From a virus: a stretch of 40,033 nucleotides of DNA. Positions 29,762 through 40,033 of the stretch are shown piece by piece. The stretch's first letter is position 1, and every line of letters starts with the position of its first letter. Under the pieces are notes generated by a model that saw only the letters and a program-made list of their open reading frames with translations, ran no database searches and had not been told where the DNA came from. The stretch lies in the UHGV virus genome UHGV-0235137; one strand, written 5' to 3'. The position numbers and the translations under genes are program-made.

Positions 29762-30018
29762 TTTGTAAATCCTTTCTTAATGAACCAGTTGATAACATTC
29801 TTCACAGCTTTATTACTATGGTAGATTAAGTGTGGTGTAGGTTGGTATAAACCATAAGCCCAGAAAGCAATGATTTCATTACATCCTGTACACCTTGTAC
29901 TCTCTTCGGCAATATGACCGTTGACTATTTCACTTACCTCACCTTGTAAGTCTGTACACCCACAATGTGGGCATCGGATAGGTGTTCCATCAGACTCATA
30001 GCAGTGTTCAATTTTCAT
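29758..30018 (-). CDS. small zinc-ribbon protein (hypothetical)
   Basis: CPHCGC ... CTGC cysteine pairs. Confidence 0.5.
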   Translation of the reverse strand: MKIEHCYESDGTPIRCPHCGCTDLQGEVSEIVNGHIAEESTRCTGCNEIIAFWAYGLYQPTPHLIYHSNKAVKNVINWFIKKGFTK

Positions 30019-30534
30019 TTATTTAACCTCAAAAACTGGCTCAAGAGCCAATATAAAGTCTACACAGTCATCTTCTTCATCCAGAATACCATCAAAGTTC
30101 TTAGGAACGAAGTCGAAGAGGCTCATAACAAAACAGTCAGAAGTAACCCTTATAGTGCCTCCCATATTCTCTACAGTCAACACTGTACGACTTTCTTTTA
30201 CCTCTCGCAGAAGATTGCTCACAAAGTCATCTAAGAAGTACTTCATCAGTGACTTAAAGCCTTTAGGGTAATCTGTACCAGAGTATGTTTCAATCTGAGG
30301 TACAAGCTTAACATTTATACTAGTCTTTGCTAAGAACGTGCTAGAGAACATACTATCAGGTAACTTGCAAACAGTCTTTCCAGTGCCTTCATGCTCAATC
30401 TCAACAAAACCAGCTTCGTCGCCACATGTAACTATTTTAAAAGATGCTTCATTCTCATACTGTGAAGCCATAAACTTTTTAAGCATCACTTTAAGGAAGT
30501 CTGCATGAGCATCTTGCAAGTAGATATCAATCAT
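30019..30534 (-). CDS. hypothetical protein
   Basis: 171-aa ORF, tightly packed with neighbours. Confidence 0.5.
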   Translation of the reverse strand: MIDIYLQDAHADFLKVMLKKFMASQYENEASFKIVTCGDEAGFVEIEHEGTGKTVCKLPDSMFSSTFLAKTSINVKLVPQIETYSGTDYPKGFKSLMKYFLDDFVSNLLREVKESRTVLTVENMGGTIRVTSDCFVMSLFDFVPKNFDGILDEEDDCVDFILALEPVFEVK

Positions 30535-30547
30535 AATTCATCACCTA

Positions 30548-30907
30548 TTATGGGAACAGACACTTGATGTCATCGTTTTTGAAAACGAAACTTGTGTAGT
30601 TGTGACCGTCAACATCCAGCCAAACCGCCTGAACATCTACACCATCAAGATTGTGGTAAAGCTCTTTGATGAAGTGGTCTTTCACAATCTGACTGCTGGT
30701 TGTTTCCAGCTTAATGTTTGAGATTGCTGAACCTACAGCCATATAACCCATGACGCGTTTCTTCTCAGTATGCTTAATCTTACCATCTTTGTAGGCCATA
30801 ATGAGATTGGAAAGAATCTTCACACCATAATATTTTTCAAGGTGAGTCGGTACACCATAAAAACCTAATGCGAAGTTTTCAGAGTGGATAATGTTTTCAC
30901 GTTTCAT
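30548..30907 (-). CDS. hypothetical protein
   Basis: 119-aa ORF. Confidence 0.5.
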   Translation of the reverse strand: MKRENIIHSENFALGFYGVPTHLEKYYGVKILSNLIMAYKDGKIKHTEKKRVMGYMAVGSAISNIKLETTSSQIVKDHFIKELYHNLDGVDVQAVWLDVDGHNYTSFVFKNDDIKCLFP

Positions 30908-30908
30908 A

Positions 30909-31208
30909 TTAATCTGCCAGCCTTAAATTAAAATTAACACCAAATTTTTCGCATACTTCCAACATAAACTCAAGAGAGACATTACCAGTGAGATTGATTA
31001 TGTTGGATACACGAGCCTGAGAGATACCACAAATTTTAGCAACTTGCTCTTGAGAAAGACCTCTGGATTTAATCTCTCTCTTAAAACGATGTGCAACGAA
31101 ATCTCTCATTTCGTCTACATCCATTGGACAAATATAACTCTCCATTTCAGCCTCTCTGTCAGCCTCCCAATCATCTTGTGGAGCATAAGGGTCAAAAGTC
31201 TCATTCAT
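30909..31208 (-). CDS. helix-turn-helix DNA-binding protein (XRE/Cro-like regulator)
   Basis: LSQEQVAKICGISQARVSNIIN HTH segment; ATG at 31208 overlaps the upstream stop in ATGAATGA; ORF-track TTG extension to 31238 rejected. Confidence 0.65.
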   Translation of the reverse strand: MNETFDPYAPQDDWEADREAEMESYICPMDVDEMRDFVAHRFKREIKSRGLSQEQVAKICGISQARVSNIINLTGNVSLEFMLEVCEKFGVNFNLRLAD

Positions 31209-31413
31209 CTTTCTTCTTCCGTTTACGTGAAGTGTCAATCAATGAATCTATGTTTGTAGCCCTAACCTTTTCACGTTCATCGTTAAGATAATCGTCAAGA
31301 ACTTTTTCAATCTGTGAATCATCTTGACAGATAACTGTAAAGACTGTAAAGCCGTCTGTATCGTCAATTATCTTACCATAGCCGCTTCTGGGATGTAACT
31401 TTTTAAGAGCCAT
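31201..31413 (-). CDS. hypothetical small basic protein
   Basis: 70-aa ORF translationally coupled to the HTH gene. Confidence 0.5.
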   Translation of the reverse strand: MALKKLHPRSGYGKIIDDTDGFTVFTVICQDDSQIEKVLDDYLNDEREKVRATNIDSLIDTSRKRKKKDE

Positions 31414-31414
31414 A

Positions 31415-31723
31415 TCAAATACCTGTGCAGCTTCTGTTTTCTAAGAAATACTCAACACCATACATAGCTTTTTGCATCAAATCTTCTTTAAACTGAATAC
31501 GATGATTAAGCATAGCCTGTACATCAATATCATCATGGTGCTTCTCTTTAATATTTGCAGATTGCAGGAAATACTCTGCAAGAACACGATACTGATAGTC
31601 AGTTACCTTGTCAGTCATCTCTGTTAAAGACTCTTCAGAGATTGGTTTAAGTAACTCACCATTAGCCAGAGCAACACCTTTAACAATCTGGCAAGTGTCT
31701 TCTGGAACACCTGATAAGTCCAC
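31415..31723 (-). CDS. hypothetical protein (start uncertain; ORF track uses GTG)
   Basis: 102-aa ORF; an alternative overlapping 57-aa ATG ORF with a better RBS exists at 31624-31797. Confidence 0.4.
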   Translation of the reverse strand: MDLSGVPEDTCQIVKGVALANGELLKPISEESLTEMTDKVTDYQYRVLAEYFLQSANIKEKHHDDIDVQAMLNHRIQFKEDLMQKAMYGVEYFLENRSCTGI

Positions 31724-31841
31724 ATTTGGGAGTTCTGTTGCATTGACTGTAAATTCATTGACATAACCATTGCAGCAGCTAATAAAATCTTTTTCATAAT
31801 GACCTCAAAGCTATATTAAATTTTGTATTACATTGGATATA

Positions 31842-31871
31842 AAAATAAGCTATAACACCTGACTTGTCAAC
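31842..31871 (-). promoter_or_regulatory. possible leftward sigma70-type promoter overlapped by an 11-bp inverted repeat (operator-like)
   Basis: minus-strand TTGACA (plus 31865-31870), about 17-bp spacer, TATTTT; inverted repeat aataagctata (31844-31854) / tatagcttatt (31878-31888). Confidence 0.35.
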
Positions 31872-32229
31872 AGATTTTATAGCTTATTTTGGCAGATTTT
31901 TTATAAGGATACTGCCATCCTTCCATACCAGACCACACCATGCAAAACCAGACTTCACATCACCCTACCGTGCAATACATCACTTAAAAACCCTCTTAGA
32001 AGACTCTTAAGTGATGCTGGTGAGTACACGTTGGTTTATGCTGCTCAGTATACTCACCAAATTTTCTATGTCAACAACTTTATATAAAAGCCCTGATAGC
32101 TATATGTGTTACAAAACAAAAGATTGTGAACAAAACACCCATTGCAAAGGATGTGTTCAAAAGTTTACTTGTGATGTAAGACAATACAAAGACAACTAAT
32201 GCAAACAGAATGATTGTGCTTAACATAGT

Positions 32230-33333
32230 TTACTCATAATCCCTAATAACTAGCCCAACAGGGAACTGTAAAGAACCCTTACGAGTCATCTTCTGGAACT
32301 GAACCGTTAGAGGCTTCCCGATAAACTCTTCAGGATGCTCAGCAAGATACTGTTTCTTCTCACGAGTAGTCTTCCATGAGACATCTACAAAGACGTTAGG
32401 AAGAGTCTCTACAACGAACTTGCCATGACCACGCTTATCAGTCTTTACACCAGTCACTTTAAACTCTTCAGTGTGCATCTTCTTGTGCTTAATCAAGAAG
32501 TATGAACGGTGACAACACTCATAGAAGGAGTCTTCAGAGATTGAACGGTACATTGCACCTTCAAACTTAGCCTCAACCCACTTATCATGAGCTTCATCAA
32601 ACTCTTCCCAAGAATTTACACGACGAGACTTAACAGGAACAACTTTACAGCCGTCTCTAAAGTCATTCAATGGTGAAGTCTCAATAATATCTCTACGCTC
32701 AGGCCATGTCTTAGTACTGTCACAGATATCGTACCAGTAAAACTTGAGCAAGTGTCTGTCAGAATTGTCTTCATTTTTAATCATAGAGACAATATCTTCT
32801 AAGTCCCACCCATGAGCATAAATCTCACCATCAAATTCATCAACATCTTTGTGGAGCCTTAACATTGCCATAATGTCAGGTATTAGTTCAGTAGGGATTT
32901 TGTAAACAGTATTTTCACGAGAGTATGCTGTGAATACACTGCCAATACTTAAGTGCCTTGAAATCCTACAACGGACACCATCAAGTTTCGGTTGAGCATC
33001 AGCAGGGAACTTCAGATACTTTGCATGGCTAACCTTTGCAGCATCATGAGCAAGCTGTACACCTACCTTTTCAGTATTCTGTGCAGACTCTTTTGTGTAA
33101 GCATAACCTTTACGGTCAACTTGCTTTTTATACTTAGCAGCAACTTCAAAGAGAGCTTGCTGCTCAGCGTTACGCTCATTCTTTTTACCGATGTTTTTAG
33201 GTTCTGCTGTATACTCTTCAAACATCATCTTGCCATTTTCTTTACCGTAGGTTGTAATAACTTTGTCACCTACAGCAACACATGACCAGACGTTAAAAGA
33301 GCCGTCTTTATTTTGTTTGTATAGAATTGTCAT
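32230..33333 (-). CDS. ATP-dependent DNA ligase
   Basis: adenylation motif I KLDGVR (PKLDGVRCR); size about 367 aa as in T7-type phage ligases. Confidence 0.9.
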   Translation of the reverse strand: MTILYKQNKDGSFNVWSCVAVGDKVITTYGKENGKMMFEEYTAEPKNIGKKNERNAEQQALFEVAAKYKKQVDRKGYAYTKESAQNTEKVGVQLAHDAAKVSHAKYLKFPADAQPKLDGVRCRISRHLSIGSVFTAYSRENTVYKIPTELIPDIMAMLRLHKDVDEFDGEIYAHGWDLEDIVSMIKNEDNSDRHLLKFYWYDICDSTKTWPERRDIIETSPLNDFRDGCKVVPVKSRRVNSWEEFDEAHDKWVEAKFEGAMYRSISEDSFYECCHRSYFLIKHKKMHTEEFKVTGVKTDKRGHGKFVVETLPNVFVDVSWKTTREKKQYLAEHPEEFIGKPLTVQFQKMTRKGSLQFPVGLVIRDYE

Positions 33334-33412
33334 TTATTTCTTGCCTCACAAGCTATACACCCTTTTGAATAGAATGAGTGCCAATCGCACCCACCAAAAT
33401 CTTCTTTGATGA

Positions 33413-33661
33413 TTAAATTGGATTTGTTGCTTTCTTGTATCTTTCGTAGTAATCTAAACATTTTTCATCCATATCGGCTATATACTGTTCGTAGTAATCG
33501 TCTATTCGTGGCTTCACAAAGGATGCTTTTGCCTTACAATAGTACTCCTCATAGGAGTAATTATTCATCCAAGAATTAAAAAGTAGTATGTTTTCGCCAC
33601 GCTTTGGTGGCATTCTTAAACTTTTCTTGTATAATTCCTTCATTTCTTGAGTTATCTTCAT
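33413..33661 (-). CDS. hypothetical protein
   Basis: 82-aa ORF. Confidence 0.5.
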   Translation of the reverse strand: MKITQEMKELYKKSLRMPPKRGENILLFNSWMNNYSYEEYYCKAKASFVKPRIDDYYEQYIADMDEKCLDYYERYKKATNPI

Positions 33662-33861
33662 TGCATATCCTTAATCTTACCTAAGAACCTTACACCACAA
33701 TTATTACACTCGTATATGTCTAAATTTGTGTTATCAGGTTTATGAAAACAGTTTGACCCACAACGACACCGGAATAGTTTACCATCAACACGGAGAATAA
33801 ATGTTTCAAGCTCACCCTCTTCTGTAAGGACGGCGTTCTTAAACTTATCTTCTACAGTCAT
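33658..33861 (-). CDS. small zinc-ribbon protein (hypothetical)
   Basis: CRCGSNC ... CNNCG cysteine pairs. Confidence 0.5.
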   Translation of the reverse strand: MTVEDKFKNAVLTEEGELETFILRVDGKLFRCRCGSNCFHKPDNTNLDIYECNNCGVRFLGKIKDMQ

Positions 33862-34064
33862 TTTCTCTTACCACCAATCTCTACGTCGATAACCTGAACA
33901 TCACCAGCAACATCAAACTTATGAATGATGCTTCCCACAGTGTAAGTCCAACCCTCGATTCGAACCAACTCACCTTCTCGTGGGACGATTGGATTACGTT
34001 GAGCTACGGTTGTAGTGGAGTGAACAACATCATAACAATAGATATAGTTTACTAGGACTTCCAT
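33858..34064 (-). CDS. hypothetical protein
   Basis: ORF-track 33858-34163 trimmed to the internal ATG at 34064, which has a GAGGT RBS and removes the overlap with the lipoprotein gene. Confidence 0.45.
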   Translation of the reverse strand: MEVLVNYIYCYDVVHSTTTVAQRNPIVPREGELVRIEGWTYTVGSIIHKFDVAGDVQVIDVEIGGKRK

Positions 34065-34074
34065 CGTGAAAACC

Positions 34075-34311
34075 TCACTCAATAACCGTAGTATGTGATT
34101 GACCATTTTTACCATATTTATAAGATGTTGTTGTTTGAGAGTTTGGACATCTGACAACAACAATATCTATGCTTACAGTATCTCCATATAGCTTATAGAC
34201 CTTGCAATCTTGCATCTCTGGTGGGAGGCTATAAGAAGCATTCTTATCTTCATAAGAAGGGTTACAACCAGTTAGAAAAATAACACCAAGTGCAATTATT
34301 ACTTTCCACAT
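34075..34311 (-). CDS. small lipoprotein (signal peptide with lipobox LTGC)
   Basis: N-terminus MWKVIIALGVIFLTGC: positively charged start, hydrophobic core, L-T-G-C lipobox. Confidence 0.6.
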   Translation of the reverse strand: MWKVIIALGVIFLTGCNPSYEDKNASYSLPPEMQDCKVYKLYGDTVSIDIVVVRCPNSQTTTSYKYGKNGQSHTTVIE

Positions 34312-34326
34312 AACACATCTCCTGTT

Positions 34327-34482
34327 TTATTGTTCACGATGTTCTACTTCTCTGTATGTACGCCGGTAGTTTATGATGAGAGGTGCTAATTCGTTGCTTT
34401 TAACATTAGAACGTAACAATTGCCAATCAAAACCTTTGGCGACTCTGCCATATAAATTGAAAAACTTTGCTTTGCGTTTCAT
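34327..34482 (-). CDS. unlisted small ORF (51 aa), candidate
   Basis: hand translation MKRKAKFFNLYGRVAKGFDWQLLRSNVKSNELAPLIINYRRTYREVEHREQ; GGAG RBS 9 nt upstream; below ORF-track length cutoff. Confidence 0.35.
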   Translation of the reverse strand: MKRKAKFFNLYGRVAKGFDWQLLRSNVKSNELAPLIINYRRTYREVEHREQ

Positions 34483-34500
34483 TTTTGGTGTCTCCAATAC

Positions 34501-34713
34501 TCAAAAGTTAATATTAATACGTTCACCCTTAAGGACTCCTGTACGGTCTCTTGCAATCTTACCGTCAACAATGAGGATATGCGCAGACTTTAAAGATTCA
34601 CTATTAAAACCTTTTACGAACTTACTAGGCATCACCACAATAAGCATCTCTTGAATCAACTCTGGAGTATAGCAATTGTCGTGAAGTTGCTGAATAACGT
34701 CTGCAAGTGTCAT
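34501..34713 (-). CDS. hypothetical protein
   Basis: ORF-track 34501-34728 trimmed to the ATG at 34713, preceded by GGAG and overlapping the upstream stop in ATGA. Confidence 0.5.
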   Translation of the reverse strand: MTLADVIQQLHDNCYTPELIQEMLIVVMPSKFVKGFNSESLKSAHILIVDGKIARDRTGVLKGERININF

Positions 34714-34919
34714 TTTTGATGTCTCCAATATTCAATGTCAATAAGTTCTTGTGCAATGCTTTTCAGATTACCTTTCAAGAAAACCTTCTCAGAACCTGAA
34801 AGAGATGAATTGTCAATTAACCTGTTCATTCTCTCAAACAACTTCTGTTTACGATTCTTGATAGTTTCCTTTGAAGCACCTTTCATCATTGCTGCATGGG
34901 TTCTTCCACGGTGGCTCAT
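34710..34919 (-). CDS. hypothetical small basic protein
   Basis: 69-aa ORF. Confidence 0.5.
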   Translation of the reverse strand: MSHRGRTHAAMMKGASKETIKNRKQKLFERMNRLIDNSSLSGSEKVFLKGNLKSIAQELIDIEYWRHQK

Positions 34920-34970
34920 AAGCCCTCCTATATAAGATATTGTATAAGGTACTCTTCCATGAGCACCTTG

Positions 34971-35483
34971 TCAACTTAGTTTTGCAAACTCTCCGTGGAG
35001 TTTCATAGCAGCTTCACAGTAAGCTTTATGGGCTTCTTCTTCTGTTATGTATGTCCCTATATGCACTGTCTTGCCATTATGGTTAACCTGTGCTTTCCAC
35101 TTACCAGATTTGCTTCTACTTGTACCTTTCAAGTTTTTTGATGTTCTAGGTTGTCCCCTATTAGACATGTTCTGTTCTTTTGTGGCCTCTCTAAGATTGT
35201 TCCAAGCATTATTCAAACCATCTCCATCTTTGTGGTCAATGTGTTTATCAGGCCACTTACCTGTCATCCAGAACCAAGCAATTCGGTGATTACCTGTTCT
35301 GTATCCTAGAATCTGTGTGTGCATATACACACCAGACCTTGTGCGCTTGATTGCTCCGGCTTTGCTTCCAATAACCACTCTACTACTATGTGGAGGTCTT
35401 CCAATCCATGTTAAGACCCCTGTTTCGGGGTCATAGTCTAACCAAGATTTTAACTGTTCATGTGTGAATCCACAATCCCGCAT
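34971..35483 (-). CDS. HNH homing endonuclease with AP2-like DNA-binding domain
   Basis: HIDHKDGDGLNNAWNNLREAT HNH motif; C-terminal GKWKAQV...HIGTY...EEAHKAY AP2-like segment; directly downstream of the polymerase gene. Confidence 0.8.
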   Translation of the reverse strand: MRDCGFTHEQLKSWLDYDPETGVLTWIGRPPHSSRVVIGSKAGAIKRTRSGVYMHTQILGYRTGNHRIAWFWMTGKWPDKHIDHKDGDGLNNAWNNLREATKEQNMSNRGQPRTSKNLKGTSRSKSGKWKAQVNHNGKTVHIGTYITEEEAHKAYCEAAMKLHGEFAKLS

Positions 35484-38182
35484 CAGTGTACCTCATACCA
35501 CGATTTACCAACCTTACCAGTACCTGTAACAAGCGTTTCTTTCTTAAGACCTAAGTTCTTAGAAGCTTGTCCATAATACCAGTCAGTAACTGCTTTCACA
35601 TCTGCCGTCATACTTTCTGGACATTCCCAACTCGTCTCATCGTGATATGCGCAGAGCAAACGAGCACCAATAGCTGGTTGACGACCATTCAACTTCATCA
35701 AACCTTCGTCAATCATACGACGACAAGCAAGGTTAATTGCCTCATTTTGAATCTGAGCCTCTGAACCCATCAAAAGATAGTTCAACAGTTTGTGTGGAGA
35801 TTTACACCACAACCAAGCTCCAGCAACCTTTACAAAACCACCTTTAGAGATTGCAGCAGTCTTACCAAACACCTCTTCAAGTGCCTTCTTAGTTGCTTTG
35901 TAGTCAGCTTCCAAGTCATCTAGCAGCTTCTTAATCTTAGGCAAACGGATAAAGTAAGTCTGCTTAGTCAGTGCACCTTCCTGAGTAGTTGCAGCTTTAA
36001 TCGTCTTAGCAAACTTCTCATCACCTGCACCGAACAGCAGTGCATAGATACCATTCTTAGCTTTCTTACGACCCTTGCTAATCTCATGGAGAAGGTTCTC
36101 ATCCTGAGTAGCTCGACAAGTCAAGATATCCTGCTCATCATTCAAGCTAAAGTAAATACTGTTCAGTGTGTGTGCATCAGTCCCTGAATAGACAACGTAA
36201 AGGTCGTTCTCAGAGTCATAGCGAAGGTACTTATCAATCTCTGGGTTGAGGTACTCATCAAAGTGTTTGCAGTAATAGCGTCCATCTTCTTGACGAATAA
36301 ACTCAATCTCTTCTTTACCTTGCGTTACCGCTTTGGTGAAGTCTTTGTCACCCATAAAGTTACAAAGAAGAACTAGCTGGGCTGAGTTCATGTCTACAGA
36401 GACAACGTTAGTACCTTCTTCACAAATCCACACTGCCCTCATTGGTTCCCCATAGACAGCAGCACCAGACGGTACGTTTACAATACCATATTGTGTCATA
36501 CGTCCAGTTGAAGTACCAAACACCATTGCACCAGCACTAAGGCGACCATCAGGACGAATCTGGTTCAACCAACCTTTTTCATCATCCTTTGAGTTCTCAA
36601 TAGTTCTGCGTCGGTGCATCAAAGTATAGTACTTAGCAATTTTCTGTCCAAGCTCACCTTCAATCGTATCATAAGATGACTCAGTAAGTTTTGGTGAAGT
36701 ACGGATTAAGCAAGGTTCAAGCAAATCTGTGTACTTCTTAACAGACCAGTTATGCTCAATGTACTGGACACCTTCATGTTCAACATAACTCAAACCACAC
36801 CGTTCAACCATCTCCTGCCATTTAGGATGCTTTGTAATCATCTTTTTGTTGTCTTTGAAGCGACAAACCTTAACAGGACGACCATCAGAGTCTTTCTTAT
36901 AGTTCCAGTCATCTGGAATCCAACCAACTGATTTCAAGTAGTCTTTAACAACTGCTACCTGAGTCATACGAGAAACTTCGAACTCAATTGGTGTATATGG
37001 TGCATCAATCAAACCTGTGTAGCGACTTGACTCAAGTTCAAAGTGGTTAACAACATGACTGTTATAGTACTTCACAGTTTTAACTGTTTTTACTGGCTTC
37101 CAGTCTTTGCATTTCTTACCAATCTTTGCGTTCAACTCATTGCAAATTGCACGAGCATCCTTCATTGCTACAAAGCCTTCCTTGTACTCTTCACCAGTTA
37201 CAGAGTTGGTTGGTGTATAGCAATTCCGCTTTTCAATGTTAAAAATCTTGGTAGTTGGTTTACCAAATGGCTTGATTTCATATGTCTGCATCTCACCATT
37301 ACGTACCTGCTGACGATACTTTGTCTTAGGGTACTTAGTAATTCTCTTCAGTCCATCTGCATGACCGAATGCTTCAACATACTCATTCCAAGCTTTTGCA
37401 AATTCTTCTCCAGTAACTTTACCTTTGGTCTTAATAGTTGGTGGAAGGTGTGGTTCAACTTCTGAAGCAAGCTCATTAGTCAACTTGTCAAGTTCCTTTA
37501 CATGGAACTCCATAAGTTCTTTATCAGCTTTCCAACCATTAATAGCTTGTTGACTCATCCAGAAAGATGTTTCTTTAGCTCGCATGTAGGTTTCATAAGT
37601 ATCTACGCCACACTTCTTCAGCTTAAGATATTCATTATCCAGTGCACGTTTAGTTTTGGCGTTAATACGGATATCTTCCACAACACGAGTGAATATTTCT
37701 GCATTCCACACACCCCAATGTTCAATCTCTGGTTTACGGACACCAACACGAGCACCCCATGCTGCCAAGCCATGAGCACCCTTATAGCCCTTTGGAGTTG
37801 GTCTATCCATCCACTGAACACGAGACTGGATAAGAGAATCCTGAAAGAAATTACTCCACGGCTTACACTTTGGATTATCAAAGTTCCACAAATCAGGTGC
37901 AATGTGATTGAAAACCCACCAGTCATATCCCAGACCATTATGGATGCAAAGTCGTTTTGCCTTTAACGCAAACTCAACACCTTCACGCAAGCCACCCTTA
38001 ATGTACTTGGTATACTTGTGACCGAGGATAGGCTCATCTGTAAAGACCCATACAGGTGGCTCTTCATCGTCAGATTTATAGTCTGCGAAAGCCATTACGT
38101 GCACTTTAGTGAACTCAAGGAGTAAACCATCAGTTTCTGTATCACCAACTAAATGTAAGTTTTTAAAATCTACGTTTTCCAT
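35483..38182 (-). CDS. DNA polymerase, family A (Pol I / T7 gp5-like) with 3'-5' exonuclease domain
   Basis: exo motif DTETDG; motif A-like SVDMNSAQL; motif B-like KKAKNGIYALLFGAG; motif C YHDE; start set at the ATG (38182) preceded by AGGGAG. Confidence 0.9.
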   Translation of the reverse strand: MENVDFKNLHLVGDTETDGLLLEFTKVHVMAFADYKSDDEEPPVWVFTDEPILGHKYTKYIKGGLREGVEFALKAKRLCIHNGLGYDWWVFNHIAPDLWNFDNPKCKPWSNFFQDSLIQSRVQWMDRPTPKGYKGAHGLAAWGARVGVRKPEIEHWGVWNAEIFTRVVEDIRINAKTKRALDNEYLKLKKCGVDTYETYMRAKETSFWMSQQAINGWKADKELMEFHVKELDKLTNELASEVEPHLPPTIKTKGKVTGEEFAKAWNEYVEAFGHADGLKRITKYPKTKYRQQVRNGEMQTYEIKPFGKPTTKIFNIEKRNCYTPTNSVTGEEYKEGFVAMKDARAICNELNAKIGKKCKDWKPVKTVKTVKYYNSHVVNHFELESSRYTGLIDAPYTPIEFEVSRMTQVAVVKDYLKSVGWIPDDWNYKKDSDGRPVKVCRFKDNKKMITKHPKWQEMVERCGLSYVEHEGVQYIEHNWSVKKYTDLLEPCLIRTSPKLTESSYDTIEGELGQKIAKYYTLMHRRRTIENSKDDEKGWLNQIRPDGRLSAGAMVFGTSTGRMTQYGIVNVPSGAAVYGEPMRAVWICEEGTNVVSVDMNSAQLVLLCNFMGDKDFTKAVTQGKEEIEFIRQEDGRYYCKHFDEYLNPEIDKYLRYDSENDLYVVYSGTDAHTLNSIYFSLNDEQDILTCRATQDENLLHEISKGRKKAKNGIYALLFGAGDEKFAKTIKAATTQEGALTKQTYFIRLPKIKKLLDDLEADYKATKKALEEVFGKTAAISKGGFVKVAGAWLWCKSPHKLLNYLLMGSEAQIQNEAINLACRRMIDEGLMKLNGRQPAIGARLLCAYHDETSWECPESMTADVKAVTDWYYGQASKNLGLKKETLVTGTGKVGKSWYEVH

Positions 38183-38242
38183 TTTTACTCCCTCTAAAAT
38201 CATTAACCTCATACATTACTGCAAAAAATTATAAAAAGCAAG

Positions 38243-38271
38243 TTGACAATGTACTTGACAAGGTGTTAATC
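38243..38271 (+). promoter_or_regulatory. possible rightward promoter (TTGACA, 16-17 bp spacer, GTTAAT/TTAATC)
   Basis: two TTGACA hexamers at 38243 and 38255 in the divergent intergenic region. Confidence 0.35.
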
Positions 38272-38439
38272 TTTGCGAAGTGGGTTTTTACTTAAAAGGT
38301 TACTTAACAGTTTAACTATACAGATACTTTAAAACTCTTAAAAGATTATTTAATAGCTTTTAAAAAGCTTTAAAGTATAACGTATAGAATACGTTAAGAT
38401 AAAAGATTAAAACTTAATAGTTACTTAAAAGAGGCTTAC

Positions 38440-38862
38440 ATGCAGAAAATGTTTGTTCACCCAGACATAGCTGACTTTGTTAGAGCTTTGCAGAAGTTGG
38501 AAGAACTTGACATTGCTGCTCAACGGGAATATGCTCACCATCACAGGAGAATGGTTGATATACAACATGAAATAGAGTTGTCTGAAAACTATGAAGATGA
38601 CTTAAAATGCTCTGTATTTGAGCATATGAAAGATGTTGCTACAGCGAGACGTAAAGCTAAAGACACAGTTGCTTTACTTGATTCTCTTAAAAAGAGGTTG
38701 CAAAGTGGTACAGACCTGTGTAATCTAGCGTCACTGATTAACGATGTTGAGACTTCTTGGGATAGACATTACTATCCACGTTCTGAAAAGACACTTGACT
38801 TTTCTTCATCAGAAAACTTAAAATGTTCTAGAAAGAAACTTAACCAACTGAGAGAGAAATAA
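38440..38862 (+). CDS. hypothetical protein
   Basis: 140-aa ORF with GAGG RBS. Confidence 0.55.
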   Translation: MQKMFVHPDIADFVRALQKLEELDIAAQREYAHHHRRMVDIQHEIELSENYEDDLKCSVFEHMKDVATARRKAKDTVALLDSLKKRLQSGTDLCNLASLINDVETSWDRHYYPRSEKTLDFSSSENLKCSRKKLNQLREK

Positions 38863-38863
38863 T

Positions 38864-39676
38864 ATGAACACTACTGTAGACCAAATGCTTAAAGAAAAAG
38901 GTATTGACGAAGCATTCTTAATCAATGCCGTAGAAAGCATGGCTATAATTCTTCGTGGAAACAACTACACAGAACAGTTTATGCCTGCAAGCTATAACTT
39001 GCCTAAAGACAAGTCTGATAACGGTGCTTTTGCAGAGCAGGTAAATATGATGCTGTGTGACAAAACACTTGCTTTAGCATCTATTGTTGTAGGTGTTGAT
39101 GCTCTTGCAGAGTTCATTTTTTATGAGATGCAGAAAAATGACTATATTGCCATGACCTCTGAAGAAAAAGACTCGCTACTGCTCTTAGGTTATGATGAGC
39201 TAGTTAACCTATTAATTTCGTCAACGAGTGCTGTTATGGCTGCTCTTGAGAAGCGCATGGAAGAGAAGCTGTCACGATATGAAAAACTTGATTGGGGTGT
39301 AGAAGAGTTAAACCCACGAATCAAAGAGATTATCCAGCAAACTAAAGACTCTTTAGCAGAAGCTGTGAAAGATGATTCTGTAGCTGATGTAGAACCACTA
39401 CAGGTGAAAGTTGCATTGATGATTCCAGCTATCTCTATGATGATGAATATCGTTGCACTAATCCAACTTTCACAGATGATGGGTACAAGCATTGAGTTCA
39501 TTGAGAGCATGACTGGTGGTGTGAGTATGCAAGCAATCAATGATGTTTTGGTAAGCATCGGTGCTTCAATCATTGAAGAGAAGCTTCGTATTAACTTCGG
39601 CGATGATTTTGTGAAGCAAATCTCGGCTATGGCTGAAAAAGAGCACTCACAAATTACTAGTGACCAACTGCACTAA
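38864..39676 (+). CDS. hypothetical protein
   Basis: 270-aa ORF immediately downstream. Confidence 0.55.
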   Translation: MNTTVDQMLKEKGIDEAFLINAVESMAIILRGNNYTEQFMPASYNLPKDKSDNGAFAEQVNMMLCDKTLALASIVVGVDALAEFIFYEMQKNDYIAMTSEEKDSLLLLGYDELVNLLISSTSAVMAALEKRMEEKLSRYEKLDWGVEELNPRIKEIIQQTKDSLAEAVKDDSVADVEPLQVKVALMIPAISMMMNIVALIQLSQMMGTSIEFIESMTGGVSMQAINDVLVSIGASIIEEKLRINFGDDFVKQISAMAEKEHSQITSDQLH

Positions 39677-39737
39677 ATCTTTATAAATCTTACAAGCCTC
39701 CTTAGTTGGGGGCTTTTTAGTAATTAAGGGAGACAAA

Positions 39738-40033
39738 ATGAGTAATATTATCGCATTTACTGGAAAGGCACGTTCTGGAAAAGATACCTCATGCTCTATT
39801 GTTAAGAATATCCTAGAAGATGAGTATGGCTACAATGTTGCAGTAATGGCCTATGCAGACAATCTTAAGCTATCTGCATCAAAGATATTTGACTTGACGT
39901 GGAATGACCTGTACGGTGAAACTAAAGAGACTCCACAGGTTTTTGATTTATCATACTCTGAACTTATGTTTAAAGTTACAGAAGCTATGGAGTTTACCTT
40001 CAGGGGCGAACGTTATCATACGGACTTCAAACT
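39738..40033 (+). CDS. P-loop nucleotide kinase, dNMP-kinase-like (3' truncated by window end)
   Basis: N-terminal IAFTGKARSGKDT Walker A motif; AAGGGAG RBS; reading frame open to the window edge. Confidence 0.55.
   Translation, partial: MSNIIAFTGKARSGKDTSCSIVKNILEDEYGYNVAVMAYADNLKLSASKIFDLTWNDLYGETKETPQVFDLSYSELMFKVTEAMEFTFRGERYHTDFK

Follow-up and report, generated by a model that had tools for sequence, protein, structure and literature searches.

The 40,033-nucleotide (nt) stretch of viral DNA analyzed here, UHGV virus genome UHGV-0235137 (hereafter the window), carries on its minus strand, at positions 34971 to 35483, an open reading frame (ORF) that is probably a homing endonuclease gene, freestanding and of the HNH_3-AP2 family (also written HNN-AP2), directly abutting the DNA polymerase gene of a Felixounavirus genome. 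A preliminary description, made from the letters and a list of ORFs, had proposed such an endonuclease, and the comparison with relatives supports it at the sequence level: the gene is sporadically present, its boundaries are exact, its divergence disagrees with that of the polymerase gene, a short tract of polymerase sequence accompanies it, and its copies are intact. The element is of an ordinary and already known kind; the gene itself is already annotated as a homing endonuclease, and the family was described in 2004.

Endonuclease gene and predicted protein

The gene, called type b below, starts with ATG and encodes 170 amino acids (aa). With the curated Pfam cut-offs applied, residues 66 to 106 match HNH_3 (PF13392; E value 7e-14, 51.6 bits against a cut-off of 24.8) and residues 122 to 164 match AP2 (PF00847; 8e-9, 36.1 bits against 33.3). 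PHROGs assigns the protein to phrog_99 ("HNH endonuclease"; 1e-61), and phmmer matches the AP2 region to the plant protein WRI1 (2.4e-7). Together with a DNA_pol_A match in the adjoining gene, these assignments bear out the earlier identification of an HNH-AP2 protein beside a DNA polymerase.

Residues D83, H84, N96, L97, and R98 are invariant in an alignment of 78 homologous sequences. In I-HmuI the catalytic residues are D74, H75, and N96; they align with D83, H84, and N105 of the window protein, which form its putative single His-Me active site. The AlphaFold model is confident (mean pLDDT, 94.9) and predicts both the beta-beta-alpha-metal fold of HNH_3/His-Me finger nucleases and an AP2 fold, a three-stranded sheet packed on a C-terminal helix.

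Relatives of the family are very common, found with tblastn in 2,686 of 50,697 phage records; among the best 120 metagenomic relatives listed, almost all match Pfam HNH_3 and about two thirds also match AP2. Within the window, phmmer against the window proteins found no paralogue of the endonuclease. The GC content of the gene (41 to 43%) resembles that of the polymerase gene, so foreign base composition gives no signal.

Junction with the DNA polymerase gene

The family A DNA polymerase gene (35483 to 38212, minus strand) is uninterrupted and encodes 909 aa. Its stop codon TGA (35485-35483) and the endonuclease ATG (35483-35481) overlap by 1 nt as TGATG: plus-strand positions 35478-35490 read CGCATCAGTGTAC, which is GTA CAC TGA TG on the minus strand. 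The coincidence of the endonuclease start with the polymerase end at 35483, noted in the preliminary description, is thus confirmed, and the overlap may be a sign of translational coupling of the endonuclease to the polymerase.

The last polymerase codons, TAT GAG GTA CAC TGA, contain a Shine-Dalgarno-like GAGGT (35490 to 35494, minus strand), a putative ribosome-binding site for the endonuclease; a spacer of 7 nt separates its GAGG from the ATG. The polymerase gene closes with TGG TAY GAG GTR CAY TGA TG in every type b allele and with TGG CTT GAA/GAG GTA CAC TAA in most empty alleles, which lack an endonuclease gene at this site; where GAA becomes GAG, a GAGG arises 7 nt before the endonuclease ATG.

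The endonuclease has its own reading frame outside any intron or intein, beside a polymerase gene that is complete. An intron or intein context was rejected, as the reading frame is separate and an Rfam scan of 30000 to 40033 returned no match and no intron.

Another candidate role is that of a packaging-associated protein, a terminase cofactor such as some cos phages have, and the presence of an HNH motif is the one point in its favor. The gene stands in the replication module beside polymerase and ligase genes, it is missing from about 40% of relatives, and its product has an AP2 DNA-binding domain and falls in the HNH_3 subfamily, which is typical of homing endonucleases. A packaging role was rejected on gene context and dispensability; viable close relatives without the gene effectively refute it, and we consider it scarcely credible.

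Site states among relatives

Region 33500 to 38500 was compared with a GenBank phage collection, which gave 262 matching records at 80 to 99% identity, almost all of them Felixounavirus (Felix O1-like myoviruses of Escherichia, Salmonella, Shigella, and Citrobacter). Judged by these matches, the window is a Felixounavirus genome. At the level of the locus, 39 Felixounavirus loci and the window were inspected.

The preliminary description had called for comparing polymerase 3′ regions of relatives with and without the insert. That comparison shows that the position is not conserved in all relatives: 103 of the 262 records carry a contiguous empty junction, 50 carry type b at full length, 58 carry another HNH-AP2 gene (type c or c3), and the others, by difference, number about 50. 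About 50 Felixounavirus records already contain and annotate the same gene as the window (94 to 98% nucleotide identity), and in many records the homologous ORF is named "HNH homing endonuclease" and lies against one named "DNA polymerase." With the site empty in 103 records, the gene is missing from about 40% of relatives.

The other HNH_3 plus AP2 genes at the site encode 165 to 177 aa, are 38 to 48% identical to type b, and fall into types c, c1, c2, c3, and d. At least six HNH-AP2 lineages thus occupy the polymerase-end site, an observation beyond the preliminary description.

The insert is exact. About 508 nt stand in place of the 6 nt TTAGTA, bounded by the stop codon of the polymerase and a conserved TTGACA. 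The empty junction reads GTACAC TAA TTAGTA TTGACAAGGTGC, with the following gene 61 nt downstream, and in wV8 and C600M2 it contains AGCTGGCTTGAAGTACACTAATTAGTATTGACAAGGTGC. Type b always starts with TGA TG and always ends with AAGT TGA CAAGGTGC, and every copy examined has identical, base-exact insert boundaries, so that sporadic presence and recurrent boundaries are found together. No repeats or target-site duplication were found at the insert ends beyond a 3-nt CAA ambiguity.

Downstream of the insert lies a 51-nt intergenic block (34920 to 34970, minus strand) that begins with TTGACAAGGTG and is highly conserved, if not strictly invariant; it shows a few substitutions, and its conservation holds for empty and occupied sites alike and for any following gene. 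The endonuclease stop codon TGA falls inside the TTGACA (34969-34974) that opens the block. A 33-nt motif of the block has a single occurrence in the window and so is not a dispersed repeat there. The TTGACAAGGTG sequence at 34959-34974 recurs at 38255-38270, in the divergent intergenic region upstream of the polymerase gene. It may be the −35 region of a phage promoter; a consensus scan called no promoter at the TTGACA (34969-34974) and no terminator beside the endonuclease gene.

Patchy presence of this kind could also arise in an accessory gene at a hypervariable intergenic spot, through ordinary homologous recombination and deletion in coinfecting phages and with no nuclease-driven step. 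Small downstream genes do vary where no nuclease is near: BPSELC-1 lacks the gene for a 69-aa protein, and ZX4221 has an extra gene. At the exact site, however, the occupants found in the six lineages are all intact HNH-AP2 nucleases, with no other kind of gene among them. With insert boundaries identical to the base and catalytic residues invariant as well, we regard chance turnover at such a spot as very unlikely.

Movement and selection

The polymerase of the window is 95 to 100% identical to those of the empty-site phages C600M2, ZX4221, and L006. The closest endonuclease gene is that of Salmonella phage BPSELC-1 (97.7% identity, 12 nt differences in 513), whose polymerase is only 71 to 83% identical to that of the window at 35700 to 36400. 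Between these two sequences there are no mismatches from 35299 to 35533, a segment comprising the endonuclease gene's 5′ half and the final 50 nt of the polymerase gene. Mismatches cluster at 34975 to 35004, inside the endonuclease 3′ tail, and are dense from 35648, beyond which the window matches the empty-site phages. These mosaic identities therefore delimit about 500 to 650 nt, the endonuclease body with 14 to about 165 nt of polymerase, set in an empty-type polymerase background.

The candidate co-conversion tract, polymerase 3′-end sequence carried along with the endonuclease gene, lies at 35484 to 35648 (minus strand) and measures at least 14 to 21 nt and at most about 165 nt. A donor-like polymerase tract that switches to the empty-site type fits the co-conversion of flanking markers.

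Discordance between the two genes is general among type b copies, which are 91 to 98% identical where the adjacent polymerase C-terminal region is only 70 to 84% identical. For the window and locus L026, identity is 93.8% in the endonuclease and 73.8% in the polymerase, with synonymous divergence (dS) of 0.24 and 1.18 (polymerase C-terminal region), respectively; for loci L031 and L042, it is 98.8% and 82.9%. The discordance was measured in pairwise comparisons, with no formal tree test. This disagreement in divergence and the near-identical copy in another polymerase background together indicate recent movement.

Each of the 11 type b copies examined is intact and encodes 170 aa. The ratio of nonsynonymous to synonymous divergence (dN/dS) for type b pairs is 0 to 0.13, with one exception of 0.25 (window and BPSELC-1). 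By these sequence comparisons, the endonuclease gene is shown to be kept intact by purifying selection and to have been exchanged between divergent polymerase backgrounds together with a short 3′ piece of the polymerase gene.

Strong purifying selection, in all pairs but one and like that on the polymerase gene, also speaks for a retained, domesticated passenger: a homing-endonuclease descendant that no longer actively homes and is kept for a benefit to the phage, such as the exclusion of coinfecting relatives or AP2-mediated DNA binding and regulation. Tight integration with the polymerase gene, with its 1-nt overlap and the putative ribosome-binding site within polymerase codons, points the same way. 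Against such a passenger, the gene is dispensable, because so many records have an empty site, and the divergence discordance with the near-identical copy in another polymerase background indicates that it moved recently. Exclusion of competitors would, moreover, need the same cutting, and therefore this explanation differs from homing only in emphasis. We judge it unlikely.

Proposed mechanism

Under the preferred reading as a freestanding homing endonuclease, the gene would be cotranscribed with the polymerase gene, and its translation would probably be coupled at TGATG through the GAGG that the gene-linked allele creates in the final codons of the polymerase. When a cell is also infected by a relative without the gene, the AP2 domain would bind near the empty junction, where the polymerase codons TGG CTT GAA GTA CAC TAA run into TTAGTA and TTGACA. 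The His-Me site (D83, H84, N105) would then cut, probably nicking a single strand if the monomeric I-HmuI is a guide, and recombinational repair would copy the endonuclease gene, along with neighboring polymerase bases, from the genome that carries it. That genome would be protected by the insert itself, which splits the site, and by three changes at the polymerase end (CTT to TAT, GAA to GAG, and TAA to TGA).

Several points weigh against this reading. In the papers searched, no biochemical characterization was found of a Felixounavirus HNH-AP2 protein, nor of any other member of this class. DNA cutting by the protein, the empty polymerase-end/intergenic junction as its target, and a nick as against a double-strand break are all deduced from sequence; the strand that is cut and the self-immunity are deduced in the same way. 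The mosaic shows recombination, and from the mosaic alone a start by a nuclease cannot be demonstrated, nor can the direction of transfer between window-like and BPSELC-1-like genomes be told.

Empty alleles that share the putative protective changes belong on the same side. The empty allele of locus L030 carries TAT GAG, and those of loci L033 and L034 carry the TGA stop codon (polymerase end at about 4200-4230 or 5005-5030 across these three loci), so the link between the polymerase-end changes and the insert is not a strict one. These three alleles may resist cleavage, or they may once have carried the gene and lost it.

Comparison with known systems

According to PMC5318435 and PMC10448857, Magnani et al. 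2004 and Wuitschick et al. 2004 described the HNH-AP2 architecture in Felix O1, RB49, Trichodesmium, and Tetrahymena. Six HNH endonuclease genes were reported in Felix O1 (PMC3185647), and HNN-AP2 genes with the same sequence boxes occur in Xanthomonas phages (PMC2248197). The HNH-AP2 genes of Felix O1, RB49, Xp10/OP1/Xop411, T5, and T1 have the same N-terminal HNH_3 and C-terminal AP2 domains as the window gene (PMC5318435, PMC10448857, PMC2248197, PMC3185647) and the same boxes (HRxAW, WP, DH, NLRE, and QN). They are likewise freestanding ORFs, with several copies per genome, and we see no difference of kind.

Genes of the HNH-AP2 type often flank polymerase genes, and the endonuclease content of such a site is unstable (Barth et al. 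2023, PMC10448857). The IPA-HNH genes of Vibrio phage ICP1 and other phages likewise join an N-terminal HNH domain to a C-terminal AP2 domain, and 29% of them adjoin DNA polymerase genes; the content of their sites is unstable and marks recombination boundaries (PMC10448857). Their nuclease domain is too divergent for Pfam HNH_3, which the window endonuclease matches at 7e-14.

The likeness to I-HmuI of Bacillus phage SPO1 (PDB 1U3E) is more distant, with 25% identity and a weak sequence-only match (E = 0.13 to 0.21). I-HmuI is encoded in a group I intron and, unlike the window endonuclease, has C-terminal DNA-binding modules other than AP2.

Freestanding genes of the T4 type (seg and mob) are likewise intergenic beside essential genes, spread by cleaving the allele that lacks them with co-conversion of flanking markers, and can replace one another at a locus, as SegH and Hef do for mobC and mobE (common knowledge and PMC2993671). 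They differ in nuclease family or DNA-binding module (GIY-YIG, or HNH lacking AP2), and experiments have demonstrated their activity. Plant AP2/ERF domains (AtERF1, 1GCC/2GCC; TEM1, 7ET4; WRI1, 7WQ5) belong to transcription factors that have no nuclease domain.

Shared tail and hairpin

Divergent lineages at the site share the 3′ tail of the ORF at the nucleotide level (EEAHKAYCEAA.KLHGEFAKLS*, where the asterisk is the stop; 34971 to 35048, minus strand). The last 66 to 78 nt are common to all six lineages, with the tail 80 to 100% identical and the rest of the gene 55 to 62%. Among 41 amino-acid-invariant columns with degenerate codons, 18 are codon-identical across lineages: 13 in the tail, 4 in a hairpin described below, and 1 at D83.

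The HNH-AP2 paralogues at the exonuclease locus (Felix O1 and O157 typing phage 11; L123 466-990 and L124 466-966) have a different tail, common to both. A tail specific to the polymerase-end locus, and a breakpoint in the window at 34975 to 35004 that agrees with it, suggest cassette replacement, for which the tail with the intergenic block on one side and the polymerase end on the other would be the arms.

The second shared element is a GACCCC-N6-GGGGTC hairpin (35415 to 35432, minus strand; codons Asp18-Pro19 and Gly22-Val23). Its stem is invariant in all six site lineages and in the exonuclease-locus paralogues, and its loop varies (GAAACA, TTAACA, GAAATA, GATACA, or GACAAA). The codons are rare in the phage (CCC, 3% of Pro; GGG, 9% of Gly; GTC, 10% of Val), with a joint probability of 1.1e-4.

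Of 58 distant homologues in other phages, no more than 2 can form six pairs there; on this count the hairpin was rejected as a family-wide feature, and the protein motif does not force it. The hairpin is present in both the minimum-energy and the centroid RNA folds, and the surrounding 116 nt of RNA are not unusually stable (z = −1.5). It may owe its origin to gene conversion between paralogues or to selection for a cis element.

Tail and hairpin can be joined in one tentative reading, which we hold to be possible and on balance doubtful. The site downstream of the polymerase would be a fixed docking site at which at least six HNH-AP2 lineages swap as cassettes between two constant arms, the polymerase 3′ end and the 66- to 78-nt tail with the intergenic block, and the hairpin, found so far only in Felixounavirus copies, built of rare codons, and placed in the 5′ part of the gene, would be a cis-acting element and not a by-product of gene conversion. 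It could then serve in the control of translation or stability or as an autoregulatory site for a G/C-preferring AP2 domain.

Implications and surroundings

The principal finding matters little in itself, being a routine selfish element annotated in dozens of Felixounavirus genomes. The site is of use as a clean natural system for HNH-AP2 endonucleases, since it offers 103 alleles without an insert, six lineages in competition, and one empty allele that is a candidate for resistance, and the shared ORF tail and invariant hairpin, both unexplained, are small leads on the swapping and regulation of such genes. The segment from 34971 to about 35650 is flagged as recombinant, as is the intron-prone part of the polymerase gene at about 35700 to 36400; both are best omitted from phylogenies.

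The polymerase gene is split in some relatives at about window position 35950 to 36090, an insert that the window polymerase lacks. BPSELC-1 has an ORF-less group I intron in this gene (L040 5117-5349; Rfam RF00028, 64 bits), and GEC_vB_B1 has an 853-nt insert (L004 3691-4543) that contains an Endonuclease VII-type ORF and matches the group I model weakly and in part (22 bits, E = 0.004). The region around the split site, 35700 to 36400, is where polymerase alleles diverge to 71 to 83% identity.

The right flank of the insertion site is the gene for the 69-aa protein (34710 to 34919, minus strand; PHROG 5180), present in most relatives and not in all. Small genes at 34500 to 34920 vary: this gene is the one that BPSELC-1 lacks, and the extra gene of ZX4221 encodes 72 aa and precedes the conserved block.

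At the other end of the window, 19 tRNA genes lie at 94 to 4621, with two HNH ORFs among them on the plus strand, at 1374-1766 (PHROG 2255, E = 1e-42) and 2684-3097 (PHROG 2255, E = 2e-41, with endonuclease VII-like matches as well); one of the two has a weak Pfam HNH match, below the cut-off. The endonuclease beside the polymerase gene is accordingly, as had been stated, a third HNH gene unrelated to the pair in the tRNA array (PHROG 99 and PHROG 2255, respectively). The array also holds the gene for a 265-aa DUF7217 protein (3650-4447, plus strand; Pfam E = 2e-89; PHROG 2114, function not assigned). Felixounavirus-like sequence at the polymerase locus was also found in GU169904.1, MG065664.1, and MG065668.1, deposited as "Staphylococcus phage SA1" and "Campylobacter phage A132/A126," host labels that look doubtful.
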